Position numbers and translations under genes: made by a program | In this document: piece by piece, positions 1 through 25,615 of the stretch | Layout of the letters: each line of letters starts with the position of its first letter | Position numbering within the stretch: the first letter of the stretch is position 1 | The notes under the pieces: model-generated | What the model was told of the DNA's origin: nothing | What the model saw: only the letters and a program-made list of their open reading frames with translations | The model's database searches: none | NCBI GenBank assembly: GCA_937928235.1 | Contig: CALEZE010000008.1 | Span: 1 to 36,011 of the forward strand | Length of the DNA: 36,011 nucleotides | From: an uncultured bacterium | Lineage (GTDB): Bacteria; Patescibacteriota; Microgenomatia; UBA8517 | Reading direction: 5' to 3'

Positions 1-376
1 TATCGAGTGCATAAACAAATTCCAAATTCTCTTTTTTCGTCATATGTTTTACGAGCAGATACATCCCCCATATACCCAATATCCCAAATATGGCAGCGGG
101 GATGCGAACACCAAGAGGGCCGATACCCCAAATAGCAACAGTGGGCACTACTGAATACAAATAAAGTGGAGTCCTCCATTCTGCAAGCGATTGTAAATGG
201 AGAGGTAGGAAGTTGCCAGAGTAATCTCTCCCTGTATTCAGTAAAGAATATGCATGGTACCCAACATCCAGTTCGTCTCCAAAAAGACTTACTGGAATTC
301 CATTAAGATTCCAGAGTCTTATGAACGCGGCAACAATTAGAATTAATGTTAAGAGTTTTTTGTGCACTTTGTTCAT
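1..376 (-). CDS. GT-C fold membrane glycosyltransferase (GT39 / ArnT-PMT_2-like); N-terminal ~125 codons only, runs off the left edge
   Basis: Not in the ORF track. My reverse-strand translation from the ATG at 376..374 reads MNKVHKKLLTLILIVAAFIRLWNLNGIPVSLFGDELDVGYHAYSLLNTGRDYSGNFLPL... This is a TM1 helix followed by the acidic DE..GY first-loop motif typical of ArnT-like proteins. ATGA overlap with the stop of the upstream gene (373..375). Confidence 0.6.
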   Translation of the reverse strand, partial: MNKVHKKLLTLILIVAAFIRLWNLNGIPVSLFGDELDVGYHAYSLLNTGRDYSGNFLPLHLQSLAEWRTPLYLYSVVPTVAIWGIGPLGVRIPAAIFGILGIWGMYLLVKHMTKKENLEFVYALD

Positions 377-1350
377 TCTACAACAGCCTCGTCTATTGAG
401 AAGGTCAGATTGCCTGAATCCATGCTCGCCCTCGCCCCAATGGGCAAAATAAAGTTTTCCACATAGTGGCCAATCTCACCTACCTGCATAATGGGGAAAG
501 CATAACCTTCCGTGGCCTCTAGCACCAAATCCTTCAGTGACATCTCGTTCCCCTCTACTTCAGGAGTGTCGCCACCCACAGTATGCCCAATAATTAAACC
601 GTTTATTTCAGAAAAAAGTCCTTTCAAGTGAAGGTTTTTTAGGAATGCGTAAATTTGCTTTTTTGCGAATTTATAAAAGTCTAACACTAGAATCGAGCCT
701 TTAAACGAAGGGCAATACTCAGTATTAGCCAACAGTGAAACTGGCGTGCAAACTCCACCAACAATAACTCCTTCTGCACTACCTTCACGAATAGAAAATC
801 TTCCATCGTATCTTGTAGGATTATCTCGAAAATCTTTCCACTTTTCGTTAGATGGAACTTCACCATATTGTTTCTCAAAAAGAGTCTTCCTTAGACTTGA
901 AGAGGTGTATGTCATATCTAGATCGGCAAAATTTCCTAACTCAATTCCATGAAACACGACCAACCCCGTCTTTTTATTTATTGGTAGAGCTAGTGTAGTG
1001 AAGTCAGAAATACCTAAAAAAACTTTGGGGTTTTTCTTAATAAGTTCATAGTCAAGTTTATCTATCATTCCCATCGCAGCCGAACCACCGACCGTCCACA
1101 CGATAGCTTTAATTGAAGGGTCGATAAACATTTTGTGAAGCTCGTTTACCCTCTGGTCAAGTGGTGCAGAAGTAAAAAAATGCCTACCAAAAGTAGTATC
1201 ACCAATCACTGGTTCCAGGCCGAACTTACTACAGAAATTGTCGATTGCCTTCTCAAAATGAGGTTTCCTAGACAGGACAGAACCAGACGGGGAAATAATT
1301 CCTACCTTATCACCTCTTTTTAACCTTTGTGGTTTAACAGTTTTTGCCAT
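373..1350 (-). CDS. ldcA: LD-carboxypeptidase (peptidase S66, LdcA/MccF-like)
   Basis: N-terminal LKRGDKVGIISPSGSV motif, GISDFT nucleophile-type motif and a C-terminal GHxxxN-like region. Length of 325 aa is typical of the S66 family. Confidence 0.7.
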   Translation of the reverse strand: MAKTVKPQRLKRGDKVGIISPSGSVLSRKPHFEKAIDNFCSKFGLEPVIGDTTFGRHFFTSAPLDQRVNELHKMFIDPSIKAIVWTVGGSAAMGMIDKLDYELIKKNPKVFLGISDFTTLALPINKKTGLVVFHGIELGNFADLDMTYTSSSLRKTLFEKQYGEVPSNEKWKDFRDNPTRYDGRFSIREGSAEGVIVGGVCTPVSLLANTEYCPSFKGSILVLDFYKFAKKQIYAFLKNLHLKGLFSEINGLIIGHTVGGDTPEVEGNEMSLKDLVLEATEGYAFPIMQVGEIGHYVENFILPIGARASMDSGNLTFSIDEAVVE

Positions 1351-2141
1351 TTTTGTCCAAGCCAGAGAACTGCATTAATAACATAGTGTTTAACATATCC
1401 GTGATAAATTTTGCTCGAGGGAATTAGTTTCTTCCACCTATCTTTGGCCGTTGCCATTTTCTTAAAAGTGGCTCCGTGGTAGTGAGTAATTACTGATTCA
1501 GGTAGGTAGTAAACCTTTAGTCCTGCTTTCCATGTTTGCCTGCAATAATCTATATCTTCAAAGTAGGCAAAATAACGCTCATCAAGTAGGCCCACTTTTT
1601 TAACAGCCTTTGGTGTCATCAAAAAAGCAGCACCGACGACAGCATCCACGGTCGTTGGGTTCTTTCCTTTAGGAGCAAATTTTTCAAAAAGACCCTTTGA
1701 GCCAAACCAATATTCTTTTATCGCTCGCACTATTGTGGGGAAGTGATAACAGGAAGATTGCAAACTTCCGTCAATGTTTAAAAGCCTAGAGCCAATAACG
1801 CCTGCATCTGGAGTTTTTTCTGCAAACTCAACTAACGAGCCGAGTGCGTTCTTCTTAACCAAGGTGTCATTGTTAAGAAGAAGTATATATTTCCCTTTTG
1901 CCTTCTTCGCCCCTTGATTGTTTGCCTTTGCATATCCGTAATTTCCATCATTTTCAATTAGCGTAAAGTTTTTGTCCTTTTTCTTTAGTTTTCTTAAGGC
2001 CTCGACGGAGCCGTCCTTGGATCCATTGTCTACCACGATTATCTCTTTTTTTATTTTGGAGCCTTCTTTTTTAATTGAGTCTATACACTCAACGGTGAGT
2101 TTCTTGTTGTCGAGATTAACAATTACAATGCTTAGGTCCAT
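1320..2141 (-). CDS. Family 2 glycosyltransferase (COG1216 / rhamnosyltransferase-like)
   Basis: LSIVIVNLDN...VVDNGSKDGS...NYGYAKANNQG...LLLNNDT, the classic GT2 (GT-A) N-terminal motifs of the WbbL-like group. Confidence 0.75.
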   Translation of the reverse strand: MDLSIVIVNLDNKKLTVECIDSIKKEGSKIKKEIIVVDNGSKDGSVEALRKLKKKDKNFTLIENDGNYGYAKANNQGAKKAKGKYILLLNNDTLVKKNALGSLVEFAEKTPDAGVIGSRLLNIDGSLQSSCYHFPTIVRAIKEYWFGSKGLFEKFAPKGKNPTTVDAVVGAAFLMTPKAVKKVGLLDERYFAYFEDIDYCRQTWKAGLKVYYLPESVITHYHGATFKKMATAKDRWKKLIPSSKIYHGYVKHYVINAVLWLGQKWQKLLNHKG

Positions 2142-2143
2142 TT

Positions 2144-3031
2144 TTAGGAAAACCGTGCCAAAAGTGCCTCGTCAGAAATTTTGCTTTCTTTTCTCTCTTT
2201 GTTTCTAGCTTTGATTGCTGCAGAAAGTCTCATTAAAGCCATTAGTATTATTCGGGAATACCCAGGATGCCTAAAAGTTCGCGATGTGATACCTGCTATG
2301 TGCTTTCTAAATAATCCCGGACTCGTTATGTTTTTCCAGTTAAAAAGAAGCTGGTTTCGCTCTTTGATTCTAGCGACCATTGTTTTGTCAAACCTCCCAA
2401 TAGTTGTTTCGTGTTCATGGTCAACTACGGACTTTGGCTCCCAAACAAGCTTGTATCCTCTCTTAGCAGCTCTGTAAGAAAGATCCAAGTCTTCCCAGTA
2501 AAAAGGTGACAACAATTCATCGTCCATACCTCCCAGTTTCATCCAAATATCTCTTCTAAAAACCCCGCTACCACCATTTACCCAGAAAGTGTCATGGGCT
2601 TCTTTGCTCTCTTTCCCTGGCTCAAACAATATATATCCGCCTTCAAACTTCCCTCTTGCCCAACCATAACCTCTTTCGTGAAGTGACACTGCAAACACGC
2701 TTTTGTCTCTGAAGTGTTTGTGTGTCTCTTCTAAAAAGTTTTCTTCAGGAACCACATCATTGTTAATAAGACAAATGAGGTCCCCTTTTGAAGTTCTGGC
2801 ACCAGTATTTACAGAGGCGGAAAAACCACGATTTTTTGTGTGCTTGATTAGTTTTACATCCGGAAAGTTTTCTTTCATAAAAGAAACAGTGTCGTCAAAA
2901 GAGCCATCGTCAACAACAATTACTTCTAATATCTGATTTTTCTTGTTTTTTTGGGCCTTTATAACCTTAGGTAGATTCTTTTTGAGAAGATCACGCCCGT
3001 TGTAGTTTGGTATAACAATTGATACTTTCAT
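2144..3031 (-). CDS. Family 2 glycosyltransferase (COG1216-like)
   Basis: VSIVIPNYNGRDLL...VVDDGSFDDT...NRGFSASVNTG...LINNDV motifs. Only a 2-nt gap to the next gene. Confidence 0.75.
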   Translation of the reverse strand: MKVSIVIPNYNGRDLLKKNLPKVIKAQKNKKNQILEVIVVDDGSFDDTVSFMKENFPDVKLIKHTKNRGFSASVNTGARTSKGDLICLINNDVVPEENFLEETHKHFRDKSVFAVSLHERGYGWARGKFEGGYILFEPGKESKEAHDTFWVNGGSGVFRRDIWMKLGGMDDELLSPFYWEDLDLSYRAAKRGYKLVWEPKSVVDHEHETTIGRFDKTMVARIKERNQLLFNWKNITSPGLFRKHIAGITSRTFRHPGYSRIILMALMRLSAAIKARNKERKESKISDEALLARFS

Positions 3032-3072
3032 TTTATGGCTAAAGGTAGTTTATCAAAACACTCTCTAAATTA

Positions 3073-4101
3073 TTAGTTCAGAATTTCTTCGAACTCTTTT
3101 ACAAACCTTCTCTGTTCATAAACCAACGAAGACTTTTGTGATCTTTTGGACATTTCCGTTAACAAGCCCTTCTCTTCTACAAGCTTCTTTGTATAGTTAA
3201 TCAAACTTTTCTCCTCACTCCACAAAAACCCTGTCTCTCCCTTGGAAACAATTTCTTTATGTCCGCCCGCCCTAAAAACCACTGGAACGGCACCTGCCGC
3301 CATTGCTTCCACAACTGTTATTCCAAAATGCTCAACTGCTTCCGGGTTTTTTTCTTCATTCACTCCAAAACCAGCGGCTGACCAAAAAATTTTGGCTTTG
3401 CCGTAGAGTTGAAGCAATTTTTCAAAAGAAGCGCTTTCCACAATTTCGATAGGGTATCCCTTAGCTTCTTTTTTAAGCTCCTTAAGAAAGTTCCCGACAC
3501 CGACTTCTACACCACCCGCCAAAATAAGGCGCCATTCTTTAAACCCCTGGTCATATAGCGATTTAAATGAACGAACCAAAACATCTTGTCTTTTTGCTTG
3601 TTTTAATTGAGAAAACCTTCCGACAGACAATATTATATTTTGCTTTCGTTTGGGGGTTATTTTGTCTGTTGCAACAGGAGGGTAAACAACCACGCTCTCA
3701 ACACCATACTCTGAATCAATTACATTTTTTGTAAAGTACGAGTTGCATACTACTTTATTTACCCGCGCTAGCTTAAATTTATTCATAAGCGAAGTTCCTC
3801 CAACACCATGGAAGGGAACTTGAAAATGCAAAACATTCTTGCGCGCTTTTAGTGCGGGTATGCTACCGTCCGAAACCCAGAAACAAATATCATAAGACTC
3901 TCCTCTTTCAACATCTTTTACGATACTCAAACCCTTCAGGTCTAGACCAAACCTCTCCTCCAGTTTTTTAATTATTCCAGGATCCGACCATTCGATGTTT
4001 ACCTTATACCCAGACTCCAGAAGAGTTTTTGCAACCATAGCAGTATACCTCTCACCGCCGCCGAGAGTGTCCAAGTATGGATTTACTATTGCCGCTTTCA
4101 T
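3073..4101 (-). CDS. Family 4 glycosyltransferase (GT-B, group 1)
   Basis: C-terminal EHFGITVVEAMAAGAVPVV (E-x7-E region) plus N-terminal PYLDTLGGGERY. I place the start at the ATG at 4101..4099 (MKAAIVNPY...), which forms an ATGA overlap with the upstream stop. The track ORF extends to 4125. Confidence 0.75.
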   Translation of the reverse strand: MKAAIVNPYLDTLGGGERYTAMVAKTLLESGYKVNIEWSDPGIIKKLEERFGLDLKGLSIVKDVERGESYDICFWVSDGSIPALKARKNVLHFQVPFHGVGGTSLMNKFKLARVNKVVCNSYFTKNVIDSEYGVESVVVYPPVATDKITPKRKQNIILSVGRFSQLKQAKRQDVLVRSFKSLYDQGFKEWRLILAGGVEVGVGNFLKELKKEAKGYPIEIVESASFEKLLQLYGKAKIFWSAAGFGVNEEKNPEAVEHFGITVVEAMAAGAVPVVFRAGGHKEIVSKGETGFLWSEEKSLINYTKKLVEEKGLLTEMSKRSQKSSLVYEQRRFVKEFEEILN

Positions 4102-4805
4102 TTTTTCTTTTCTTGCATCTCCCAAAGTTTTGCGTAGGTAATCATACGACTAAACATTTGATAAACGATCTCAATCACGCCTACTCCTCCGTCGAGAAAT
4201 CCAAGCTTCCTCACACCACGGTACCAAAACTCCCTAAACGCTGCCGACATCATCCTCCACCAGGTGACAGGGGGGTGGCCTGACTTAAAAAGTAGTTCTG
4301 CCTCTATCTCTGACCATTTGTTGGTTTTTTCGACCATCTCTTCTAAGCTCCTGTGGGACCTATGAACAAAAGGTTCTTTTAGTTTTTCTACATTGCCTTT
4401 AAGTTTGGGTTGCTCATGGAGCTTGCCTTCCCATTTCACAAACTTATCTTTTCTTATTAGACGGACAACATAGTCTGGCCACCAGCCACCGTATCTCATC
4501 TCCTTTCCCAAGAGGATATTTTTCCTGGGAATCGCGTACGCAGCAGTGTCGCTTTCAGATGTTTTGATAGTGTGTTTGATTTCCTCTCGAAGCTTTGCTG
4601 TTACCTCTTCATCGCTATCTACATACAAAAGCCATTCATATTTTGCCTTTTTTGCTCCTTCGTTACGCCATTTTGAGAAATCCTGGTCTTTCCCGTCTGG
4701 TTTTATTTGAATTAGTTCATCACACCAGGTAAGTGACTTTAAGCATTTTTCGAGAAGTTCTTTGTTTGCTCCCTCGCCGGCTAACACAATTGCAGAAATC
4801 TTCAT
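4098..4805 (-). CDS. GT2-like glycosyltransferase, short WaaE/KdtX-like form with a degenerate N-terminal nucleotide-binding segment
   Basis: YVDSDEEV (DxD) and IPRKNILLGKEMRYGGWWPDYVVRLIRKD. Clear paralog of 5721..6638 (IPRKNIVFGKWLQHSRWWPDYNIRLFKKD), but it lacks that copy's VVDxxSxDxT block. Confidence 0.55.
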   Translation of the reverse strand: MKISAIVLAGEGANKELLEKCLKSLTWCDELIQIKPDGKDQDFSKWRNEGAKKAKYEWLLYVDSDEEVTAKLREEIKHTIKTSESDTAAYAIPRKNILLGKEMRYGGWWPDYVVRLIRKDKFVKWEGKLHEQPKLKGNVEKLKEPFVHRSHRSLEEMVEKTNKWSEIEAELLFKSGHPPVTWWRMMSAAFREFWYRGVRKLGFLDGGVGVIEIVYQMFSRMITYAKLWEMQEKKK

Positions 4806-5737
4806 TACTTTTTCCCCCAGGAGCCCTTACCAAATCTGCACAGGAAGAAATCGCGAACACCAGTTTTTTGCCACTCTCGCCCTTTGGTAAGTAGTCTCAA
4901 ACTTTCCCTAACAAGAGCGAGTTTGGTTCGAAGCCTGGCATATCTCATTCCAAAATCTAATCTGTTTCTTGTTAAAAAGTAGTCGTTAAGCTGGCTCCCA
5001 ATACCAGAGGCTTGTGACACCTTGTGCCAAAGGTGAGTTGCCGGAGTATAAACAACTTTCCAACCTGCACGCTTGGCGCGCTCAGAATACTCCGCATCTT
5101 CCCAGTACAAAAAGTATTTTTCTCTAAGATATCCAATATCTTTTACTAATTTGTTTCTTGTTAGCACACAAGCTCCGTTTGCTACATCGGTTTCTGCCTG
5201 TTCGTCGTACTGGCCTTCGTCAACCTCATCCACACCCCGATGTGTTGTGTAAATATTGTTTCGATCGATATCTCCACCCGCATACCAGAGAACTTTTCCC
5301 AATTCAGTCTTTTTATATCTGTCCTTGTGGTATTCGTAACCTTTAGCAAAATACATCTTTGGAGAAAGAAGTCCAATTTTTTTGTCCTCTTCTGCAATTT
5401 TTAGAAGCACTTTTAATAAATCTTTTTTCAGAATGAGGTCGTTATTCATTAGGAGCATATAGTCAAACCCTCTTTCCACAGCATCCCTCATTCCAATATT
5501 GTTGCCCCCAGCAAAACCCAAATTGGCGCCGGTGTTTATATACTTGAAGTCCATGTTTGGCAACTTAAAATCTTCAAAGTATTCGGGTGTTCCATCTGTG
5601 GAGCCGTTATCTACTAGCAAACACTCTGCGTTTAAACCACTTGTGTCCAGTTTTGCCACATCTTTCATTTGTTCCTGGGTCATCTCTTTTTGATTCCAGG
5701 TGAGAATTATTAACGCTACTTTAGGTTTTTTTGCCAT
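4805..5737 (-). CDS. Family 2 glycosyltransferase (COG1216 / rhamnosyltransferase-like)
   Basis: VALIILTWNQ...LVDNGSTDGT...NLGFAGGNNIG...LLMNNDL...YWEDAEYSERAKRAGW motifs. Confidence 0.75.
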   Translation of the reverse strand: MAKKPKVALIILTWNQKEMTQEQMKDVAKLDTSGLNAECLLVDNGSTDGTPEYFEDFKLPNMDFKYINTGANLGFAGGNNIGMRDAVERGFDYMLLMNNDLILKKDLLKVLLKIAEEDKKIGLLSPKMYFAKGYEYHKDRYKKTELGKVLWYAGGDIDRNNIYTTHRGVDEVDEGQYDEQAETDVANGACVLTRNKLVKDIGYLREKYFLYWEDAEYSERAKRAGWKVVYTPATHLWHKVSQASGIGSQLNDYFLTRNRLDFGMRYARLRTKLALVRESLRLLTKGREWQKTGVRDFFLCRFGKGSWGKK

Positions 5738-6638
5738 ACTTTAGTCTCCTTGCAACTTTTTTCGGGAAAGCTTTTATTGCACCCTTCTCCTTTGTGTATT
5801 TCTCAGTAATCCACCAATTAACTTCTGACTCTGCTTCCCCAAAAACACTAGCAACCTCGTCGAATGATGTGGCCTGCTCTAAAAACTTCTCTTTCTGCCA
5901 AATTTTTAGATAAACCATTGCTTCAGAAAATGCCTGCAGAATGGCAAGTGCCAGACCATGAAGGCCGTCCTTGTAGCCCTCTCCGGCGAAATATCTGCTC
6001 AAGAATTCTGACAAAGGCCTTTTGATAAGGTCTTTCCACAAAAATTTATGTTTCTTGGCAACTAGTTCGTCTGCCTGGACGGAAGTGTACCTGTTCATTC
6101 TTTCTATGTACTGCTCCAGAGTCTGGTAGTTGTGATGAATTATGGCAAATTCGTCCTTTGCCGGAAGGTCAATCCCTTTTCCTTGAGTAATGGGTACTGA
6201 ATGGATTTCGTCATCCCATTCAACATTGTCTTTTTTGAAAAGCCTGATGTTGTAATCTGGCCACCAACGGGAATGTTGCAGCCATTTTCCAAAAACTATA
6301 TTTTTTCTAGGAATCCTAACATAGTCTGCTTTGTCTTCCTTAATTATTTTTTTAATCTTTTTGGCAAGCGATTTACTGATTTCCTCATCTGGATCCAAGA
6401 CCAATACCCACTCCTTACTCGCCTTTGAGATAGCAAAGTTTCTGGCCGGCTCCACATAGCTCACCTTCTTAAACTCATATACCCTAGCACCAACCTTCTC
6501 GGCTATCTCGACAGTCTTGTCACTTGACTTCATGTCGACAACTACAATCTCGTCTGCCAAGTCTTTCACCGAAGCTAGGGCGCGAGGAAGCACATCTTCA
6601 ACATTGCTGGTATTTAAAACAACCGTTAATTCAGCCAT
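5721..6638 (-). CDS. Family 2 glycosyltransferase (WaaE/KdtX-like) with a C-terminal helical extension
   Basis: LTVVLNTSNVED...VVVDMKSSDKT...VLDPDEE...RWWPDYNIRLFKKD. Paralog of 4098..4805. Confidence 0.65.
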   Translation of the reverse strand: MAELTVVLNTSNVEDVLPRALASVKDLADEIVVVDMKSSDKTVEIAEKVGARVYEFKKVSYVEPARNFAISKASKEWVLVLDPDEEISKSLAKKIKKIIKEDKADYVRIPRKNIVFGKWLQHSRWWPDYNIRLFKKDNVEWDDEIHSVPITQGKGIDLPAKDEFAIIHHNYQTLEQYIERMNRYTSVQADELVAKKHKFLWKDLIKRPLSEFLSRYFAGEGYKDGLHGLALAILQAFSEAMVYLKIWQKEKFLEQATSFDEVASVFGEAESEVNWWITEKYTKEKGAIKAFPKKVARRLKYGKKT

Positions 6639-6659
6639 ATTTCGTATTTTACCTTCTTT

Positions 6660-13897: not shown

Positions 13898-14028
13898 TCA
13901 AACCTTTCCCTTCTTTGGACGGTTATTCCGCCGAACTCTACCTCCTCGATGACCTCCCCTATTCCCTCGTGCCTTACGAGCCAGGCCTCGAGCCGTTCGG
14001 TGTGAGTCGGATCAGTCTCATAGAGAGT
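13894..14028 (-). other. 44 open codons plus TGA that continue the frame of the 14029..15462 gene past its TAA; likely the severed (or read-through) C-terminus of that GT-C gene
   Basis: Hand translation after the TAA (14031..14029) reads TLYETDPTHTERLEAWLVRHEGIGEVIEEVEFGGITVQRRERFE*. The terminal TGA (13896..13894) overlaps the ATG (13897..13895) of the next gene, as at other junctions here. VIEEVEFGGITVQR resembles IDEEWEVAGITLFK at the C-terminus of the paralog 16425..18014. There is no in-frame ATG/GTG/TTG. Confidence 0.45.
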
Positions 14029-15462: not shown

Positions 15463-16435
15463 ATTTCCTGCAAGTCTCTAGCACTTTTTCCACAGCTTCC
15501 TCGTAAGGAGTGTTCTCAATCCTCGCCCCGGAAGCAGCAGCGTGCCCTCCTCCTCCTAACTCAATTGCAATTTTTGAAACATCGAAATTAGTACGCGATC
15601 TAAATGACACTGAAAGATTCTTTTCTTCCGTCTCAACCATTACTACCCCGAAATTTGTCCCCTCCACACTCTGAAAAAATTCACTGGCAAGTCTTTCTTT
15701 TGCATCAACGGGTTTACCAAATTTTTTGTAAAGTTCAAATGGTGCAGCCACCCAAACAAAAGAGTGTTCGTTTTCTATTTTTATTCTAGATAACATTTCA
15801 GCCCAAAACGCAACCAGTTTTTCTGAAACCGTAAAGTTGATATTTAAGTTTATCTTGTCTTTATCAGCTCCCTTCTCAAGCAAGTTTGCGGCAAGCCTTA
15901 GCGTTTCAGGTGTTGTGCCTGAATAACGAAAAGAGCCCGTGTCTCCAATTATGCCGGTCAACAGACTTGTCGCCACAGCTTCATCAATAGTCACCTCCCA
16001 GTCTTCGAAAACTCTGTAAAGAACCTCAGCTGCTGAGTTAACTTCCCAATCAACAAGGTTTGCGCTTCCATATTTCGTATTAGTTTTGTGGTGGTCTATA
16101 ACAACAATATCTATGTTCGGTTTCTTAATATCTTCTGAGGCGGCAACCATTCCCCAACTGGCAGAATCTATACAGATAAATAAGTCATGTTGAGAAAAAT
16201 CGTATTTTTCAAAATCTACAGTCTCTATGGCTTCGAAGTTTTTCAAAAAACTCAAATTCTCACTCGCCCCTGTCGGGCAGATAACTGCCACATCTTTCCC
16301 CATTGTCCGCAACACCGAATACATGGCAAGGGCCGACCCTACAGAGTCCGGGTCAGGATTCCTGTGACAATTCACAAGAATTCTGTCGGCGCTTTGGACT
16401 TTGCTAAGAATTTCCTCGGACTCTTTATAATTCAT
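15452..16435 (-). CDS. nrnA: DHH/DHHA1 family phosphoesterase (NrnA-like oligoribonuclease / pAp phosphatase)
   Basis: HRNPDPDSVGSALA (DxD), VVIDHHKTN (DHH) and GGGGHAAASGA (DHHA1 GGGH) motifs. 11-nt overlaps with both flanking GT-C genes. Confidence 0.75.
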   Translation of the reverse strand: MNYKESEEILSKVQSADRILVNCHRNPDPDSVGSALAMYSVLRTMGKDVAVICPTGASENLSFLKNFEAIETVDFEKYDFSQHDLFICIDSASWGMVAASEDIKKPNIDIVVIDHHKTNTKYGSANLVDWEVNSAAEVLYRVFEDWEVTIDEAVATSLLTGIIGDTGSFRYSGTTPETLRLAANLLEKGADKDKINLNINFTVSEKLVAFWAEMLSRIKIENEHSFVWVAAPFELYKKFGKPVDAKERLASEFFQSVEGTNFGVVMVETEEKNLSVSFRSRTNFDVSKIAIELGGGGHAAASGARIENTPYEEAVEKVLETCRKYAK

Positions 16436-18014
16436 CGTTGTGTACTAATTTAAACAGGGTAATACCTGCAACTTCCCACTCCTCATCAATCTTACTCCAT
16501 CCAAAGTTGGCTATTTCGGCTTTGGGGTTACTTGTCGGCTGACACTTGTCTTTCGGGAGTTCGCAAATCACAAAAAGCTGCTCTGTTATTGTCTCGTCTG
16601 CCCTTTGTGCATCAATACCCACAATCGGGGCTCCATCCTTTTCCAAAAAGTACCAATATGCACCTTCATAATTTCTTTCCGCAATAACTGCAATATTAAA
16701 AGGTTCGCCGCCCGCCTCTTTGGTAATTTTTTCTGCCACCTCAATACTTCTTTGCATTTGTCTGTTTGGCGGCTCAAGTAGCGGGTTTTGTTTCAAGTTA
16801 AAAATGAAAAGCGCTGCCAAAACCAACCACACCACCATCTTTCCGGACTTACGCAAATTTTGCATTGCTCCATCAGCAAAACCTCCAATTAGCAAAAAAG
16901 GTGCAGCAAACATAAATCCATAATAGTGGTCGTATACTTGTTGTTTATATAACCCCAAACCAACAAGGCCTGTGGCAATCCAAAGCAATATTATCGTGTA
17001 ACCTGACACCTCGTTTTCTTTCAGCCTGTACCTGTTTAAAAGAAAGAAAAGTGAGGGTATTGATAAAACTGCCAGAACCCAACCTCCAACCTTTTCATCC
17101 CTTGCTCCAACCAACCTGGTTGACACCTCCTCGGCTATCTCTGGAAGTTTGGGTAAAGCATTCCAGGGTCTAGCTGAAACAGTTGTCTGCCTTTTTACAA
17201 AGAAATCGCGCATTGCAGAGAAGTTTCTCCAACCATGACGGGCATCAAAGATCACCAGCGGAGACATCATTAGGGCAAATAGACCAGCTGAAACCAGCGT
17301 GTACTTTATGAACCGAGGTCTAAAAGTTTCTGATTTCTTGTTTTTTATGTAAGTTATGAGCCAGTAAAACCCAAGGAGCGGTGCGAGAAGAAGCCCTAAG
17401 TAATGCGACTGCAGTGTCGCGGCAAAAGAGATTACTGCAACGATAAGCCATTTTAGTTCATTCTTGTGCCACATTCTCCAAATAGCATACACACTCAAAA
17501 GTGCAAAAAAGGGCATGATGTTGGGGTTCCAAGAAGACCGGGAATAAACAATAACTGTGGGAGAGACAGCAAAAAGTGCCGAAGCCACAACGGCTGCCAC
17601 TTTCCCAAACCATTCTCTAGCAACGAACCAAACAAAAAACACAGTTGCGACACCCAAAAGGGCAATAAAAATTGCAGGGCCCGCCGGTGAATAGTTCGCG
17701 AAATACAAGGCAGGAGCTATTAAATAGTAGTACAAAGGCCCAAGATACATGTTTCCAATGGAAGTCCCTGGACCAACCAGTATTGGGTCAAAATTAACAA
17801 GGAGTCTCCTTACGACAATAACATCCCTTCCCTCATCTCCAAGAAATGTCAAATACTCATCAATCCTGAATAACCTTAAAAATGCTGCCAAAAGCAAGAT
17901 GGCGACAAGAATTAAAAACTCCCGAGGGTTTGCCTTAACCCAAACTACAATTTTGTTAGCCCAAAAACGCTCTTTTAAGGTTTCCTTATAATTTTTTAGT
18001 TTCTTTTTGCTCAT
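16425..18014 (-). CDS. ArnT/PMT_2-like GT-C membrane glycosyltransferase
   Basis: RLFRIDEYLTFLGDEGRDVIVVRRLL first-loop motif, more than 10 TM helices and a soluble C-terminal domain ending ...EEWEVAGITLFKLVHNDEL. ATGA overlap with the upstream DPM1-like GT2. Confidence 0.7.
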   Translation of the reverse strand: MSKKKLKNYKETLKERFWANKIVVWVKANPREFLILVAILLLAAFLRLFRIDEYLTFLGDEGRDVIVVRRLLVNFDPILVGPGTSIGNMYLGPLYYYLIAPALYFANYSPAGPAIFIALLGVATVFFVWFVAREWFGKVAAVVASALFAVSPTVIVYSRSSWNPNIMPFFALLSVYAIWRMWHKNELKWLIVAVISFAATLQSHYLGLLLAPLLGFYWLITYIKNKKSETFRPRFIKYTLVSAGLFALMMSPLVIFDARHGWRNFSAMRDFFVKRQTTVSARPWNALPKLPEIAEEVSTRLVGARDEKVGGWVLAVLSIPSLFFLLNRYRLKENEVSGYTIILLWIATGLVGLGLYKQQVYDHYYGFMFAAPFLLIGGFADGAMQNLRKSGKMVVWLVLAALFIFNLKQNPLLEPPNRQMQRSIEVAEKITKEAGGEPFNIAVIAERNYEGAYWYFLEKDGAPIVGIDAQRADETITEQLFVICELPKDKCQPTSNPKAEIANFGWSKIDEEWEVAGITLFKLVHNDEL

Positions 18015-18736
18015 TTCAAATTATTCCAAGGTCTTGTGTTCAAAAGTCTGAAAAGCCCCTCTATATCGCCCCATGCTGTCTTTGCTACCTTTACAGTAGA
18101 TGCAGGGTCGTCTCGCCACACAATTGGCACCTCTTCAATTTTAAACCCAGCTTTGTCTGCGATAATCAAAAGTTCCGAATCAAAAAACCAACCATCGTCT
18201 TTTACTTCTGGCAAGAGTTTGTCGGCAGCCTTTTTTGTTATCGCTTTAAAACCACACTGCGCATCTCGAAAACTTGTCCAGAAAAGTGACCTAAAAAGAA
18301 AACTGTAGCCCCTAGACATTATCTCTCTTAGAATGGTCCTTCCGTAAACCTTCGCACCAGGTGCCAACCTTGAACCAATTGCAATGTCTGACCCATTCTC
18401 TAACTCCTCAATAAGTTTTGGGAAATATTTCAAATCGCTCGACAAATCAACATCCATGTAGGCCAGGTATTTCGCTTTTGCCTTCTTCCAGGCACGCTTT
18501 AGCGCCCTGCCTCGCCCTTTTTTGGCTAATCTAATATAACTAATATTTTTACTGCGAGACAATTTTTTCCCAATTGAAGGAGTTTTGTCTGTCGAGGCAT
18601 TGTCCAAAATCACTATCTCCCAATCATAGTTTGACATGTTTTTTTTCAAAAATTCCCTTACTTTTGGAACATTTACGGGTAGGTCCGCTTCTTCGTTGTA
18701 AACGGGTATTACAACGGCCAATCCTGCTTTTGTCAT
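18011..18736 (-). CDS. Polyprenyl-phosphate sugar synthase (DPM1 / ArnC-like GT2, soluble form)
   Basis: LAVVIPVYNEEADL...IVILDNASTDKT...YMDVDLSSD...DIAIGSR...RDAQCGFKAI...DSELLIIADKAGFKIEEVPIVW. I prefer the ATG at 18736..18734 (MTKAG...). The track starts at the TTG at 18742. Confidence 0.75.
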   Translation of the reverse strand: MTKAGLAVVIPVYNEEADLPVNVPKVREFLKKNMSNYDWEIVILDNASTDKTPSIGKKLSRSKNISYIRLAKKGRGRALKRAWKKAKAKYLAYMDVDLSSDLKYFPKLIEELENGSDIAIGSRLAPGAKVYGRTILREIMSRGYSFLFRSLFWTSFRDAQCGFKAITKKAADKLLPEVKDDGWFFDSELLIIADKAGFKIEEVPIVWRDDPASTVKVAKTAWGDIEGLFRLLNTRPWNNLK

Positions 18737-18742
18737 GCCCAA

Positions 18743-18776
18743 AGTCTAGCACAAATCGGCTGAGCCATGGTAATAT
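18743..18776. promoter_or_regulatory. Divergent pair of TGn-extended -10 boxes serving 18011..18736 (-) and 18784..19944 (+)
   Basis: Plus strand: TG-G-TAATAT (18768..18776), then TTGGGCA, then the ATG at 18784. Minus strand: TG-C-TAGACT (18751..18743), then TTGGGC, then the ATG at 18736. The -35 matches are poor, and no Shine-Dalgarno can fit. Confidence 0.35.
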
Positions 18777-18783
18777 TTGGGCA

Positions 18784-19944
18784 ATGTCAAAAAGGTTTAG
18801 CGGGCTCGTGCCGATAATTCTACTGTCTTTGGTGCCGACACTTCTTATTTGGTTGCCATTTTTGTTGAGACTCGAGTCTTTTTGGACTATACCTCTGCCA
18901 ACAGCCGGAATGGCCACAATCGTTGCAAACTACGACGGACCGCTTTATTTGGTTGTTGCAAAAACTCTCTACAAGGCAGACCTTATTAAAAGCATGTTTC
19001 AGTTCACCCTACCAACCGAATACTACGCTGCACATTTCCCACTTTTTCCACTATTGATAAAACTATTCGCACCACTTTTCGGACATATATATTCCATGCT
19101 CCTTGTAAGCATCTCCTCTTCCGTTTTGGCGCTTTATTTCTTTTTCAAACTCGCTGCAGACACCGTCAACAAGAAAAGCGCACTGTGGCTCACAACCATC
19201 TTTGCTCTTCTTCCGGCTCGTTGGTTGATTGTTCGCTCAGTGGGTTCTGCCGAGCCTTTGTTTATCGCGAGCATTATTGCATCCATATACTTTTTTAGAA
19301 AAAAGCAATATGTTTTTGCTGGAATCTGGGGTGCACTAGCACAACTCACAAAATCCCCCGGTATTCTTTTGTTTGTTGCTTATGCAGCTGCCATAGTCTT
19401 TCCACATCTTAGGTACCTTGCAACCCATTCGTTTTCGGGGTGGGTTGAAAAACTGCAACTGAAAAAAGTTTACCCACTACTTCTTATACCCTTGGCGTTA
19501 ATACTGCTTTTTGCCTTTTATGGTTACGCCATGGGTGACTTCTTTGCTTACTTTAATTCGGGAGACAACAGGCATATTTTCTTCCCCCCATTTACAATAT
19601 TTAATTACTCAGCACCTTGGGTGGGTACTTTTTGGCTGGAGGAAATCCTTTTCGTTTACCTGATAGGCGCCCTGGGCATTGCAAAACTATTTGAGCAGAA
19701 AAAAGAAATAATGGCATGGTTTGCTGGAATATTTTTTGCTTCCATTCTTTTTGTCGCACACCGAGACATCTTGCGATATGCACTACCTGTGGTTCCCTTT
19801 TTGATTATCGCCTTCGCAGACACATTAAACAAAAAGGCATTCAAATATGTTTTTGCTCTCATCGTTATTCCGAGCTATCTTTTTGCTCTCACTTACATTT
19901 CTCAAAATGTGATGCCAATTTCTAATTGGACTCCATTCCTCTGA
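18784..19944 (+). CDS. Polytopic membrane protein, PIG-V/GT-C-like mannosyltransferase family candidate
   Basis: Start moved to the internal ATG at 18784 (MSKRFSGLVPIILLSL...), because the first 70 track codons are antisense to the GT2 gene. ANYDGPLYLVVAKTLY resembles the YDG..Y..IA..GY motif of PIG-V-like/DUF2029-type GT-C proteins. About 10 TM helices. Confidence 0.45.
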   Translation: MSKRFSGLVPIILLSLVPTLLIWLPFLLRLESFWTIPLPTAGMATIVANYDGPLYLVVAKTLYKADLIKSMFQFTLPTEYYAAHFPLFPLLIKLFAPLFGHIYSMLLVSISSSVLALYFFFKLAADTVNKKSALWLTTIFALLPARWLIVRSVGSAEPLFIASIIASIYFFRKKQYVFAGIWGALAQLTKSPGILLFVAYAAAIVFPHLRYLATHSFSGWVEKLQLKKVYPLLLIPLALILLFAFYGYAMGDFFAYFNSGDNRHIFFPPFTIFNYSAPWVGTFWLEEILFVYLIGALGIAKLFEQKKEIMAWFAGIFFASILFVAHRDILRYALPVVPFLIIAFADTLNKKAFKYVFALIVIPSYLFALTYISQNVMPISNWTPFL

Positions 19945-19961
19945 GTAAAAATTGAGAGTGT

Positions 19962-20420
19962 TTGAGAGATTATTCTTCTTACAATAGCCTTGTGTCAGCA
20001 GAACAAGATATTCCCAGAAACTGGAGGCTGAAAGCACAAAGATACAGAATGGTCGGTACGGCCTGTGAGGAAGGGCATAGACACTTTCCCCCGGTTGCTG
20101 TCTGTCGACATTGCAGCGGAGAAGCAAAAGCTCCCTACCAATTTAGTGGCAAGGGGGAAATTTACTCGTTTGCTACTGTTTTTGAGGGTCCAGCTGGTTT
20201 TAACGGAAAAACTCCATACCACCTCGCCACAATTAGGCTCGAAGAAGGTCCTTTAATCACTGCGCAGCTAACTGACTTTGGAAATAAGGAGCCTGAGATA
20301 GGCGCAGCTGTCGAAATGGTAACGAGAATGATAAAGGAAGTTGCTGGCGAGAGAAGTCTCTTTGTTTATGGATATAAATTTAGACCGCAGCTTCAGGCCG
20401 AGCCTGAGCAGCCAAAATAG
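19962..20420 (+). CDS. DUF35-type Zn-ribbon + OB-fold protein
   Basis: ...YRMVGTACEEGHRHFPPVAVCRHCSG... (Zn-ribbon with an fPP motif) followed by FSGKGEIYSFATVF...YHLATIRLEEGPLITAQL (OB fold). The track start is a TTG, so the start is uncertain (GTG 19992 or ATG 20049 are possible). Confidence 0.55.
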   Translation: MRDYSSYNSLVSAEQDIPRNWRLKAQRYRMVGTACEEGHRHFPPVAVCRHCSGEAKAPYQFSGKGEIYSFATVFEGPAGFNGKTPYHLATIRLEEGPLITAQLTDFGNKEPEIGAAVEMVTRMIKEVAGERSLFVYGYKFRPQLQAEPEQPK

Positions 20421-21306
20421 CTTCCTCAAGCTTACGGTTTATCCAAGACCTTCTGATGTGAATTTGATACCCTCTGTCTTCCTGTTTGGCATGCACCAAA
20501 TCTTGGTAGGTCTCAAACATCTCTTTCAGCCCGGCCCTGAAATTATGATTTGCACTAAACTTGCTGGCCTCATTTACTGGTAAAAACCTGTGCTTCTTTA
20601 ATCTGTGGCTTGTGAAATTCTTTAAATCTGAAAGGTGGCTTGGCAGACTAAGCACATACACGGCTACCCGGACATCAACAACATCGACATACATAAAGGG
20701 TTCGGGGTTCATTGGAATGACATTGTCTGGAAACTTTCTCTCTACGGTCTTCTCCATAAACACCTCTTGCTGAAGAAGCCGCCTTATTGAATCTTGCGGG
20801 TTTTCGTTTCTTTTTGAAAATCCCATTGGAACCGAAACCGCACCATATGGTTTGCCAAGCTCAACTCTGGGTGAAGTATCCAAGCCGATCATTATCTCGT
20901 TGGGATTGCCTTCAGAATAAATCATGACAGCAGTTCCCACTCGTCTCAAGTCTCTTTCTTCAAGTGCTTCTTTGGCATTCTTTTTGATATCTTTGTAAGT
21001 TCGGTGCAAGCTTGCAACTGCGTGGGTAAAACTGCTTGGCATCTTTTTGTATAAAGTCTCAAGCGGAACTTGTTTTTCTGCCAAACTCACAAAGAATCCT
21101 ATTAGTTCTGATAAAGGCTTGTTTGGACCTGCGGCTTTAACAATACCCCACTCGTCAATAAGCCTGTGAATACTCGCCTGAGACATTGGTATATCGTAGT
21201 TGTTTGCTTTAAGAAGTTCGTCTACGGAGCCATACTTAAGATATTCTGAAACCACACTTTTGCAAATCTCTAATTCGTATTCTGGTAGATTAGCCATTTC
21301 TTTCAT
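20380..21306 (-). CDS. Hypothetical protein: N-terminal helix-turn-helix-like region plus a C-terminal Nudix-fold domain with a degenerate Nudix box
   Basis: The N-terminal MSQASIHRLIDEWGIVK looks like an HTH recognition helix. GFSKRNENPQDSIRRLLQQEVFM fits Gx5Ex7REUxEExGU in spacing, but RE is RL, the first E of the EE pair is Q, and the final G is F. The 3' end overlaps the convergent DUF35 gene by 41 nt. Confidence 0.35.
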   Translation of the reverse strand: MKEMANLPEYELEICKSVVSEYLKYGSVDELLKANNYDIPMSQASIHRLIDEWGIVKAAGPNKPLSELIGFFVSLAEKQVPLETLYKKMPSSFTHAVASLHRTYKDIKKNAKEALEERDLRRVGTAVMIYSEGNPNEIMIGLDTSPRVELGKPYGAVSVPMGFSKRNENPQDSIRRLLQQEVFMEKTVERKFPDNVIPMNPEPFMYVDVVDVRVAVYVLSLPSHLSDLKNFTSHRLKKHRFLPVNEASKFSANHNFRAGLKEMFETYQDLVHAKQEDRGYQIHIRRSWINRKLEEAILAAQARPEAAV

Positions 21307-21348
21307 CGGACTAAATGTTGCACCTTCATAAACTACAATTTTAGTCCG
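21307..21348 (-). promoter_or_regulatory. Perfect 9-bp inverted repeat (CGGACTAAA / TTTAGTCCG, 24-nt spacer) abutting the ATG of 20380..21306
   Basis: Arms at 21307..21315 and 21340..21348, read directly from the sequence. The spacer contains a GAAGGTG purine tract and an 8-codon uORF (MKVQHLVR*) whose TGA overlaps the main ATG. Confidence 0.35.
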
Positions 21349-21385
21349 TAAAAACTCTCAAAAACTTTCAAATCTCATCCTGGAT

Positions 21386-22540
21386 TTATTTTTTTCTACT
21401 GAAGATTTTGGGTAACTTCCAGGTCTTCCAGATTACAACATTAGCCATGATGTAGTTGTATGGAAAAACTATGAAGAGCACTATAACTGCCAAAACCAAA
21501 TAATCGTACTCCGCCCCGAAAATCCTAACACCAAGTGGTCCAAGAATAGACTGTATTATCAAGGCTCCGGCAGAAGTTAAGTTGAACTGGAAGAACTTAT
21601 TTATATGCGCTTTGACACCCGAGATTTTCTCGGCCTTAAAAGTCCAAATATTGTTGAAAATGTAGTTGTTGGCAATTGCAAGCTCAGTTGCAAAGAGCCA
21701 AGTTAAAACCTCGGCAAGCCCGATCCCTCTAAAAATTCTAATAAAGGCAAAGTTAACCAAAAAACCAGCAAAGCCAACTATTCCGAACTTAATTATCTTA
21801 ATCTTGTCCATAATTCCTAAATATGTTGCCACTTTGTAACTTGCAATCATTTCCTTGAAGTTAAACTTACTTTTTTCCTCTGTTCGGGGACGAAACTCAA
21901 GAGGAACTTCTACCGTTTTTTTTGAAAGCTTTAGTGTTCTGTAAAAAAGATCCATCTTGTAAGCAAAGCGTTTAAGTTCCATCAAACTTTCAAGTTTTAT
22001 CTTTTCAAGTACTCCCTTTACTCTAGTTAGTCTGAAACCCGTAGTAACATCGTGAATCTTAAAATTAAGCCAAACAAGACGGATATATAAGTTGCCAAAA
22101 TAGCTTACAAATTTGCGAGTGAATGCCCATTCTTCGGGAACTGATCCTCCATCAACATACCTGCTTCCAACAACATAATCCGCTCCGTCCAGGTACGCCT
22201 CTATCATCGGTTTAACAAATCTAGGGGGGTGTTGTCCATCCGCATCCATTTCCATAACGGCATCAGCGTTTAGTTTTTTGATTGCGTGGTTAATACCTGC
22301 GACATACGCCCAACCAAGACCAGACTTGCTGCCCTGTTGAATTATGTGCACTTTGGAGTTGGTTTTTGCCGCTTTTTCGACAATTTCGGTTGTGCCATCT
22401 GTGGAATTATTGTCCACCACAAGAAGTTCGACATCGACACCTTTTATGTCAGGGAAGACTTCCTTCGTCAAAGTCCCGACCATCTTTTCGATGTTTTTTG
22501 CCTCATTCCAAGCAGGCATTACTATTACGACTTTGTCCAT
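21386..22540 (-). CDS. Polyprenyl-phosphate sugar synthase (DPM1/GtrB-like GT2) fused to a C-terminal GtrA-like 4-TM domain
   Basis: VVIVMPAWNEAKNI...LLVVDNNSTDGT...MDADGQHPP...YVVGSRY for the GT2 part. The C-terminal FGIVGFAGFLVNFAFIRIF...NNYIFNNIWTF... is typical of the GtrA family. Confidence 0.7.
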   Translation of the reverse strand: MDKVVIVMPAWNEAKNIEKMVGTLTKEVFPDIKGVDVELLVVDNNSTDGTTEIVEKAAKTNSKVHIIQQGSKSGLGWAYVAGINHAIKKLNADAVMEMDADGQHPPRFVKPMIEAYLDGADYVVGSRYVDGGSVPEEWAFTRKFVSYFGNLYIRLVWLNFKIHDVTTGFRLTRVKGVLEKIKLESLMELKRFAYKMDLFYRTLKLSKKTVEVPLEFRPRTEEKSKFNFKEMIASYKVATYLGIMDKIKIIKFGIVGFAGFLVNFAFIRIFRGIGLAEVLTWLFATELAIANNYIFNNIWTFKAEKISGVKAHINKFFQFNLTSAGALIIQSILGPLGVRIFGAEYDYLVLAVIVLFIVFPYNYIMANVVIWKTWKLPKIFSRKK

Positions 22541-22607
22541 CTTTTTAAAGAAAAGGTGTTTCTACGCCTTTAGATTATCGTATCAGAGTAAATGCCAAAA
22601 ACCTAGC

Positions 22608-23315: not shown

Positions 23316-23331
23316 CCTGAACCAGTATAAT
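23303..23331. promoter_or_regulatory. Overlapping divergent -10 boxes for trmD (+) and the DedA-like gene (-)
   Basis: Plus strand: TAGAAA (23303..23308), 17 nt, TATAAT (23326..23331), 6 nt, ATG at 23338. Minus strand: TATACT (23329..23324), 8 nt, ATG at 23315. The intergenic gap is only 22 bp. Confidence 0.4.
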
Positions 23332-23337
23332 ACAGCT

Positions 23338-23988: not shown

Positions 23989-24013
23989 TTGCAAGGAAAG
24001 GGGGTGAGATATT

Positions 24014-25597: not shown

Positions 25598-25615
25598 ACG
25601 CAGATTGTAACAGAT

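Follow-up and report, generated by a model that had tools for sequence, protein, structure and literature searches.

A contig of 36,011 bp, which as a whole we call the window, comes from a Woesebacteria-like bacterium of the Patescibacteria/Microgenomates and carries an array of glycosyltransferase (GT) genes in which seven GT-C, three polyprenyl-phosphate-sugar-synthase-like GT2, one Wzx/MOP flippase and six cytoplasmic GT2/GT4 genes are tightly packed on one strand, with the GT-C gene G386 alone divergent. We propose that this locus is a core cell-surface glycan assembly line of the Microgenomates, that it works on polyprenyl-phosphate carriers and that much of its chemistry takes place outside the membrane; we give this proposal an even chance of being right. 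Gene content and gene order are observed, and from them we infer each of the following steps (names as in Table 1). GalU, GalE and RmlB/C/D would supply UDP-Glc, UDP-Gal and dTDP-Rha, and one of the three synthases, a DPMS/AglJ/WpsA-like GT2, would load the first sugar onto a polyprenyl monophosphate. GT2d, GT2c, GT2w, GT4, GT2b and GT2a would then extend the lipid-linked oligosaccharide in the cytoplasm, Wzx would flip it outward, and U557 would transfer it en bloc to an acceptor, or polymerise it. The three lipid-phospho-sugar synthases would also make monosaccharide donors, and PMT518, PMT477, PMT529, PTPS_related, G386 and the truncated GT-C would add outer-face residues from these polyprenyl-P-sugars.

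Calling of open reading frames (ORFs), followed by Pfam and NCBIfam scans of all 34 genes in the window, recovered every gene listed in a preliminary description of this DNA, each where that description had placed it. Read on the minus strand from position 18736 to position 1, the order is PPS243-PMT529-DHH/NrnA-like-PMT477-PPS245-PMT518-PTPS_related-Wzx-U557-GT2d-GT2c-GT2w-GT4-GT2b-GT2a-LD-carboxypeptidase-truncated GT-C (125 residues). The junctions range from -31 to +41 nucleotides (nt), with a single exception, a gap of 131 nt. G386 follows on the plus strand, and the GT2 fused to a GtrA/DPMS domain lies further upstream, again on the minus strand. Two pairs of a synthase-like GT2 and a GT-C are translationally coupled, PPS245 with PMT518 (gap of 0 nt) and PPS243 with PMT529 (overlap of 4 nt), in keeping with the GT2-to-GT-C module logic that had been put forward for the locus. 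Promoter and terminator scans over 13000..24200 gave counts at chance level, from which operon boundaries are not derivable.

The array recurs widely. A scan with U557, using one genome per species, found relatives in 428 genomes, all the informatively named ones being of Microgenomates type; the named homologues belong to the Patescibacteria, Microgenomates group (Woesebacteria, Blackburnbacteria, Amesbacteria). We took the best 80 loci, called ORFs in the 10-kb flanks of U557 and assigned each to its best window protein (Table 1). The order PPS243-PMT529-DHH-PMT477-PPS245-PMT518-PTPS-Wzx-U557-GT2d-GT2c-GT2w-GT4-GT2b-GT2a-GT-C recurs in about 80 species; the 10-kb flank cuts off distant genes, and loci that extend far enough to include them, such as L033, L048 and L070, show them in this order too. 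Across these species orthologues share 45-70% identity, and paralogues within the window are given as at most 25% identical (the listed GT2 pairs GT2w/GT2d and PPS243/PPS245 stand at 34% and 35%). Orthologues are closer than window paralogues, and therefore the duplications must be old, each copy having kept its own role.

These observations speak against two terms of the preliminary description. It had called the locus an island, and we find the same genes in the same order in all these sampled species, an even GC content (0.39-0.46, with no step), no tRNA genes and no integrase or transposase family among the window products; an Rfam scan of the window gave no matches. It had also proposed several modules working in parallel, and each paralogue has its own orthologue at a fixed place, which argues for one integrated pathway with one conserved product. 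We favour a single pathway because of the tight translational coupling, the fixed order and the presence of three synthases for seven GT-Cs. That the array is a set of co-located independent three-component systems, in which each GT2/GT-C pair serves another target (protein, wall polymer, lipid) and the Wzx branch is unrelated, we consider improbable. The two coupled pairs and the one GtrA-fused synthase would suit such an arrangement, as would the lack of U557 and PTPS_related in L086 and the gain or loss of single GT-Cs among relatives with the rest undisturbed. The genes inserted in other species' arrays are a methyltransferase (46/80), a YfhO-family GT-C (37/80), an extra PMT_2 (13/80) and a GT87 GT-C (9/80). 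Against independent systems stand a collinear array with overlapping stop and start codons in about 80 species, the linkage of sugar-nucleotide genes to the locus and the numbers themselves: with seven GT-Cs but three donor synthases, donors must be shared.

The three DPM1/ArnC-like GT2 proteins have polyprenyl-phosphate GTs as their closest characterised relatives among PDB and NCBIfam matches, as anticipated. The product of 21386..22540 aligns over its full length to Pyrococcus furiosus DPMS (5mlz, residues 3-372, E=1e-41), has a DADGQ motif and carries the expected GtrA fusion, detected as a GtrA_DPMS_TM domain. The best PDB matches of PPS245 are DPMS (5mlz, E=9e-16), ArnC and GtrB, and the best NCBIfam matches of PPS245 and PPS243, which are 35% identical, include PgfS, AglJ, a haloarchaeal dolichyl-phosphate hexose transferase and ArnC. 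WpsA and GacI, which lack transmembrane helices, are active polyprenyl-phosphate GlcNAc transferases, with a partner (PMC10821137). No WpsB/GacJ-like small activator was found beside PPS245 or PPS243; the one gap there measures 131 nt, and its minus strand has no ORF that reaches 20 residues.

A priming phosphoglycosyl transferase was found neither by profile scans of the window nor in the ten extra families commonest within 10 kb across the 80 species, and the same holds for a Wzy polymerase and for Wzz; an O-antigen ligase is likewise missing from the window. The preliminary description was right about the lack of primer, Wzz and ligase. It had left open how the oligosaccharide is then initiated, for which a precedent exists in the priming of polyprenyl monophosphate by DPMS-like GT2 proteins (AglJ, PMC3871713; WpsA/GacI, PMC10821137). 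We propose that a DPMS-like GT2 primes on the monophosphate here too, and that therefore no WecA- or WbaP-type primer is present. The Wzx-linked oligosaccharide branch of the preliminary description is supported by the flippase, which has about 14 hydrophobic segments and matches Wzx-type families and not a MurJ family, and by the six cytoplasmic GTs, all with Glycos_transf_1 or Glycos_transf_2 matches (marginal for GT2w, a paralogue of GT2d with 34% identity and E=1e-32).

The same genes could belong to a conventional Wzx-dependent undecaprenyl-diphosphate pathway, with a distant WecA/TagO or WbaP primer, U557 as Wzy or ligase, a distant LCP protein attaching the polymer to peptidoglycan and the PMT-like GT-Cs adding side-chain sugars; we regard this as unlikely, if well short of far-fetched. 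Wzx with six cytoplasmic GTs is the standard repeat-unit layout, primers often lie outside such clusters, as wecA does for many O-antigens, a wall context is hinted at by the rhamnose genes and by the LD-carboxypeptidase inside the array, and many U557 homologues carry a fused, extracytoplasmic DUF3863-like domain. On the other hand, neither the window nor the ten commonest extra families of the 80 loci include a primer, Wzz, Wzy-like or LCP gene, and loci for variable polymers are not normally kept gene for gene across a class-level lineage. Furthermore, U557 folds like oligosaccharyltransferases (OSTs), DPY19 and Aft-type GT-Cs, its Foldseek list containing a single SEDS match (8p1u, FtsWIQLB; E=1.0, template modelling (TM) score 0.16) and no WaaL entry.

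U557 has no sequence match in Pfam, NCBIfam or the PDB, and a U557 profile gave only noise against the PDB, at E=0.06. Its homologues number more than 1,400, of which the best 120 are 53-61% identical, bar one 99% copy; clustered at 50% identity, the family has 1,579 representatives with E <= 0.001 and 780 with E <= 1e-30. The AF2 model (pLDDT 86, pTM 0.88) shows about 11 transmembrane helices and a C-terminal extracytoplasmic domain of about 140 residues. In Foldseek only GT-C enzymes stand at the top (E 2e-8 to 3e-3, TM score about 0.5). The first PDB matches are DPY19, yeast and human STT3, AglB and PglB (E 2e-8 to 9e-7), followed by AftA and AftB; for STT3, AglB and PglB the values are E 3e-8 to 9e-7 and TMq 0.49-0.55. 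The isolated C-terminal domain of AglB (3vu0) matches the model with a probability of 0.98-1.0. The weak GT-C call made for this gene in the preliminary description, with no family recognised, has thus gained a confident model with GT-C fold matches. An alignment of 40 homologues revealed the invariant motifs NGHDGxWH (after the first transmembrane helix), GES.FW.QQ, DR (D275-R276), W-N-T-I-Q-F and EDxVNL, the first four of which are predicted by the model to lie in outward-facing loops. Wzx is directly upstream of U557 in 60/73 species, the two overlapping by 4 nt in the window, and GT2d usually follows U557 directly.

Two kinds of fusion were seen among the homologues. One natural protein, P0283 (1,639 residues), joins Wzx, an extra domain and U557. 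Many others (P0244, P0248, P0262 and about 20 more) are 1,000-1,170 residues long, with an N-terminal signal anchor and an extracytoplasmic domain of about 450 residues. The extra domain, absent from the window, is a remote relative of DUF3863/PDB 3lm3 (E=6e-8), itself an uncharacterised protein, so that no function follows from the likeness; we take the DUF3863 family to have a glycoside-hydrolase/deacetylase-like fold.

The GT-Cs of the array set are polytopic, with 8-13 transmembrane helices, and match a GT-C family or fold, which is how we defined membership. Four were called from Pfam families over threshold, one through orthologues and two through AF2 models and Foldseek, so that the candidates do have a GT-C family or fold. 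Seven GT-Cs are thereby borne out; the "up to eight" of the preliminary description, which itself lists four clear and three weak ones, is not, and no eighth was found. Candidates for it were discarded: 22608..23315 (235 residues, about five transmembrane helices) belongs to no family, might from its sequence alone be read as DedA-like and is not kept at its position in L086 or L087, and 20380..21306 has no family and no transmembrane helix. The four clear ArnT/PMT_2-like calls hold, three (PMT518, PMT477 and PMT529) through PMT_2 scores above the gathering score of 26.1 and the truncated 1..376 product through its orthologues. This product has no Pfam match, carries GDELD at residue 33 and matches the N-terminus of PMT518 in BLASTP (E=5e-5); its orthologues are 60-72% identical and stand at the same position after GT2a, the one examined (in L004) being a 577-residue PMT/PMT_2 protein. 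The weak call of 9822..11606 as PTPS-related-like stands, with PF10131 above threshold, and BLASTP relates this protein to PMT529 (E=1.3e-5), of which PMT477 is a paralogue (24% identity, E=5e-31).

The PMT_2/PMT gathering scores are missed by U557, with no match, and by G386 (21.1 bits against 26.1). The weak call of G386 as a GT-C is supported by its fold: the best 30 of 30 Foldseek matches of the AF2 model (pLDDT 81, pTM 0.85) are GT-C or GT-C-like, including STT3, ArnT, AglB, ALG9, ALG6, AftA, Pmt1/2 and PIG-U. For both models the TM score is about 0.5 to GT-C enzymes versus about 0.1 to unrelated transporters. G386 has more than 1,900 homologues, the best 120 being 61-71% identical. All seven GT-Cs have an Asp motif 10-30 residues past the first transmembrane helix (GDELD, ADEAI, GDEGRD, FDQGRD, HDDLQ, NGHDG, NYDGP), and the Asp is invariant in U557 (D39, 40 homologues) and in G386 (D51, 38 homologues); this shared first-loop acidic residue is a candidate catalytic position. 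A profile-profile comparison of U557 with G386 detected no sequence relationship (probability 2%), although its alignment sets HDG against YDG.

Several points weigh against our proposal. The roles given to the array proteins would follow from family, fold and gene order, and a lipid phosphate as acceptor of PPS245 and PPS243 is a best guess from their sequences: all their NCBIfam scores lie far under the curated cut-offs, they have DMDQA and DVDLS where DPMS has DxDxQ, and neither has a transmembrane helix. A separate small GtrA-type flippase for these two synthases is not present in the array. The gene for a primer could lie in another part of the genome. The U557 consensus and invariant columns contain no WWD of the WWDYG motif of true OSTs; because this motif is missing, U557 is OST-like in fold and not a member of the STT3 family, and ought not to be classed among the OSTs. 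As its fold matches DPY19 and AftA about as well as OSTs, it could use a monosaccharide as donor. Finally, in the related Patescibacteria L086 the array from PPS243 to the cytoplasmic GTs is kept, together with the G386-DPMS-Rml side, with Wzx between PMT518 and GT2d and with U557 and PTPS_related missing at the site; either these two sit at another site of that genome or the pathway allows another ending.

In Haloferax, AglJ starts the glycan, AglG, AglI and AglE extend it on dolichol phosphate and AglB transfers it, while AglD, AglR and AglS add the last mannose from Dol-P-Man (PMC3871713). In its gene logic the array resembles the Haloferax volcanii Agl pathway, with a putative DPMS-like GT2 priming on polyprenol monophosphate, cytoplasmic extension, Wzx/MOP-like flipping and OST-fold GT-C, and with a second DPMS-like GT2 that would make a lipid-P-monosaccharide for a PMT_2-like GT-C to add outside (PMC3871713). 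The second Agl pathway likewise has linked rhamnose genes, and the best NCBIfam matches of the array proteins include AglJ, Dol-P hexose transferase and Agl23. The differences are that the host of the array is a bacterium with peptidoglycan, that there are seven GT-Cs against two in Agl, that U557, without WWDYG or a Pfam match, is not STT3/AglB, that a protein acceptor is a candidate only and that the NCBIfam scores are far under the equivalog cut-offs. We are doubtful of a full endoplasmic reticulum (ER)- or archaeal-style protein glycosylation in this bacterium, in which an oligosaccharide built in the cytoplasm and flipped by Wzx would be extended by outer GT-Cs from three polyprenyl-P-sugars and transferred en bloc by U557 to surface proteins.

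Our proposal of an assembly line on polyprenyl-phosphate carriers also has bacterial parallels. In Lactococcus, GlcNAc-P-C55 produced by WpsA/B is lengthened by WpsC-F and flipped by the Wzx-like WpsG; the GT-Cs WpsH and WpsJ then polymerise and transfer it, with a three-component system adding side glucose (PMC10821137). The array resembles this polysaccharide pellicle (PSP) system and the side-chain system of the streptococcal group A carbohydrate (GAC; GacI/J/K/L) in the DPMS-like GT2 without transmembrane helices and in the proposed cytoplasmic extension, Wzx-type flipping and polymerisation and transfer by GT-Cs, and also in the extra three-component systems for side sugars, the linked rmlABCD genes and a branch in which a phosphoglycosyl transferase is unneeded (PMC10821137). 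It differs in lacking a WpsB/GacJ-like activator beside PPS245 and PPS243 and, in the window, a rhamnan ABC-transporter branch; moreover PSP loci are strain-variable, whereas the array is conserved over a class-level lineage. With the classical GtrA/GtrB/GtrC, CsbB/GtcA/YfhO, ArnC/ArnT and Ppm1/Pmt systems (see also PMC11127046) the array shares the GT2 synthase directly upstream of a GT-C and a GtrA-type domain, here fused; unlike them it has three synthases for seven GT-Cs, no free GtrA/GtcA, and a Wzx branch in the same conserved operon. The assembly of mycobacterial arabinogalactan and lipoarabinomannan and the ER pathway with ALG3/9/12/6/8/10 and STT3 likewise have a cytoplasmic phase, a flip and many GT-Cs extending from polyprenyl-P-sugars. 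G386 folds near ALG9, ALG6 and AftA, and U557 near STT3, AftA and AftB; the array differs in having no sequence membership in GT22, GT57, GT58, GT53 or GT85-type families and in being one operon in a genome of less than 1 Mb.

The likeness to ArnC/ArnT suggests yet another reading, an ArnT-like modification of lipids or lipoglycans that decorates membrane lipids, be they host-acquired or like phosphatidylinositol mannosides (PIM) or lipomannan, for instance in cationic-peptide resistance; this we find very hard to credit. ArnT too belongs to PMT_2, the GT2 matches include ArnC, GT87 (PimE-like) genes occur in 9/80 related loci, and a Saccharibacteria genome has been proposed to carry PIM-type genes (PMC6031116). 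ArnA/B/D for the biosynthesis of 4-amino-4-deoxy-L-arabinose were however not found in the window, the ArnT equivalog scores 15 bits against a cut-off of 567, and six cytoplasmic GTs with Wzx are foreign to Arn-type systems.

As for the acceptor of the proposed assembly line, a surface protein rich in Ser/Thr or Pro/Thr seems about as likely as a wall-associated glycopolymer, and a lipid less likely. A protein is favoured by U557 with its OST/DPY19-like fold, by the PMT-type enzymes and by the two nearby surface proteins described next; a wall polymer is favoured by the rhamnose genes, the YfhO and GT87 relatives elsewhere and the DUF3863-like fusions of U557 homologues. The first of the two proteins, 30412..32772 (minus strand), is a secreted protein of 786 residues with Ig-like domains, 27% Ser+Thr and a C-terminal transmembrane anchor, and the second, 29419..30354 (minus strand), is a membrane CAP/YkwD-domain protein with a Pro/Thr/Glu-rich linker, whose position is kept in L086; either is a possible glycan acceptor. 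N-x-S/T sequons in the neighbouring surface proteins are not above composition-matched shuffles (11 observed and 9.4 +/- 2.5 expected in the 786-residue protein), and sequon enrichment was dropped as a clue, being uninformative between protein and wall polymer.

The literature searched holds no description of the locus. The array recurs in relatives, but the named homologues of the two families searched are hypothetical or generic, so that here too the preliminary description is not overtaken by an array already characterised; for one Microgenomates genome only '29 genes of glycosyl transferases' are remarked upon (PMC7143001). The parts of the array are themselves of known kinds. What is new is their combination, the many distinct GT-Cs of ancient divergence that a single operon contains, the conservation in sampled Microgenomates and the U557 family without a model, a large GT-C family missed by current family libraries whose fold is closest to OSTs. 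Patescibacteria (the Candidate Phyla Radiation) have genomes of less than 1 Mb, are thought to be host-attached and have a surface of which the composition is little known. The locus, of about 22-29 kb, takes up about 3% of a Woesebacteria genome of 0.9 Mb (complete ones measure 901,682 and 916,571 bp), and its gene-for-gene conservation suggests that it probably makes a defining envelope component. If monophosphate priming and extension outside the membrane hold true, an archaeal/eukaryotic style of glycan assembly would reach a deep bacterial lineage. The locus also names concrete genes for heterologous reconstitution.

Table 1. Genes of the array and of its flank in the window. The last column gives the species, of 80, with the gene within 10 kb of U557.
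Feature	Position	Strand	Basis	Species
PMT/PMT_2-type GT-C, N-terminal 125 residues, runs off contig end	1..376	-	syntenic orthologues, BLASTP to PMT518, GDELD motif	
LD-carboxypeptidase (Peptidase_S66)	373..1350	-	Pfam E=8.5e-31	
GT2a, cytoplasmic GT2	1320..2141	-	Glycos_transf_2 E=3.7e-30; weak match rhamnosyltransferase TIGR01556; no transmembrane helix	
GT2b, cytoplasmic GT2	2144..3031	-	Glycos_transf_2 E=2.8e-24	55
GT4, cytoplasmic, GT-B fold	3073..4101	-	Glycos_transf_1 E=1.7e-22	69
GT2w, divergent GT2-like	4098..4805	-	Glycos_transf_2 23.9 bits, cut-off 23.3 (marginal)	67
GT2c, cytoplasmic GT2	4805..5737	-	Glycos_transf_2 E=5e-18; weak matches rhamnosyltransferase, GlfT1	68
GT2d, cytoplasmic GT2	5721..6638	-	Glycos_transf_2 E=3.6e-20	78
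U557, OST-like GT-C, no Pfam/NCBIfam model	6660..8333	-	AF2 model and Foldseek	
Wzx/MOP-family flippase	8330..9829	-	Polysacc_synt_3 E=2e-56; MOP flippase PRK10459 E=1.9e-41	74
PTPS_related/YfhO-like GT-C	9822..11606	-	PF10131 40.4 bits, threshold 26.4; HDD motif at residue 46	47
PMT518, PMT_2/PMT GT-C	11603..13159	-	PMT_2 51 bits, PMT 36 bits; ADE motif	55
PPS245, DPMS/ArnC/GtrB-like GT2, candidate polyprenyl-phosphate sugar synthase	13160..13897	-	PDB and NCBIfam matches	43
PMT477, PMT_2 GT-C	14029..15462	-	PMT_2 36 bits	
DHH/DHHA1 phosphoesterase, NrnA-like	15452..16435	-	Pfam; NCBIfam NrnA 120 bits, under its cut-off	
PMT529, PMT_2/PMT GT-C	16425..18014	-	PMT_2 49 bits; GDEGRD motif	
PPS243, second DPMS/AglJ-like GT2, no transmembrane helix	18011..18736	-	Glycos_transf_2 E=1.4e-27; NCBIfam AglJ E=3e-16	
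G386, membrane-only GT-C (Gpi18/PIG-V-like label in JGI)	18784..19944	+	PMT_2 21 bits, sub-threshold; AF2 and Foldseek	
DUF35-type zinc-ribbon/OB protein	19962..20420	+	Pfam	
308-residue soluble protein, no family	20380..21306	-	Pfam/NCBIfam scans	
Type-III DPMS-like polyprenyl-phosphate sugar synthase, GT2 fused to GtrA/DPMS domain with four transmembrane helices	21386..22540	-	5mlz; GtrA_DPMS_TM E=2e-14	
RmlD, RmlC, RmlB (dTDP-rhamnose supply)	24135..27508	-	profile scans	
GalU-like UDP-glucose pyrophosphorylase	28183..29088	-	TIGR01099 E=1.5e-79, 267 bits, cut-off 327	
GalE UDP-glucose 4-epimerase	34333..35316	-	TIGR01179 408 bits, over cut-off	

The preliminary description had ended the unit at 22540, a limit that does not hold: judging by the order in L086, the conserved block runs on through the GtrA-fused DPMS, the dTDP-rhamnose genes, GalU and the CAP protein. 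L086 shows the order G386-DUF35-unknown-DPMS/GtrA-TrmD-RmlD-...-RmlB-NTP transferase-RNaseH_like-CAP as well, L087 largely so, and in both the Rml genes are conserved downstream of the locus. No separate RmlA-type gene was found in the window. RmlB (25616..27508, minus strand), which scores above its NCBIfam cut-off, has a C-terminal extension of about 300 residues (about 25619..26520) without a Pfam match, in which a Nudix-like box can be made out by eye (GGFPKLNESIFELITRKLEEELGI); a similar long form (659 residues) exists in L087. The 308-residue product of 20380..21306 contains a weaker Nudix-like stretch, and its counterpart in L086 is a gene for 293 residues at the same position, likewise without a Pfam family. 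The DUF35-type gene overlaps this convergent gene by 41 nt, and its pairing with G386 is kept in L086. We take its product to be of the kind that scaffolds thiolase and HMG-CoA synthase in archaea, and speculate that it might be linked to isoprenoid supply.

Two non-glycosyltransferase genes embedded in the array had gone unmentioned in the preliminary description. The LD-carboxypeptidase gene lies between GT2a and the last GT-C, with overlaps of 31 nt and 4 nt; LD-carboxypeptidases trim peptidoglycan peptides. It looks like a contig-specific insertion into the operon, because GT2a directly adjoins the last GT-C in other species. The DHH/NrnA-like gene overlaps each of its PMT_2 neighbours by 11 nt and occupies the same position in L018, L029, L033, L048, L052, L086 and L087. 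We know of no role of such a cytoplasmic phosphoesterase in glycosylation; it may act on a nucleotide by-product.

Some details concern single genes or database records. GT4 likely starts at the ATG at 4101 and not at the TTG at 4125, and its product has 342 residues in the near-identical locus L001. On this same 99%-identical contig (4529..6119) PTPS_related is split into ORFs of 350 and 188 residues, probably by a frameshift or an assembly error; the gene is intact (594 residues) in the window and in L004. Dozens of genomes with a Microgenomates-type locus (L008, L010, L013 and others) are titled 'uncultured Gammaproteobacteria bacterium', and one 'Clostridia bacterium', which look like placeholder or wrong taxonomic labels. 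Lastly, an ORF of 115 residues at 34022..34369 (minus strand), overlapping galE by 37 nt, matches only positions 25-85 of the 264-position TsaD/TsaB profile and may be a minimal or truncated TsaB.

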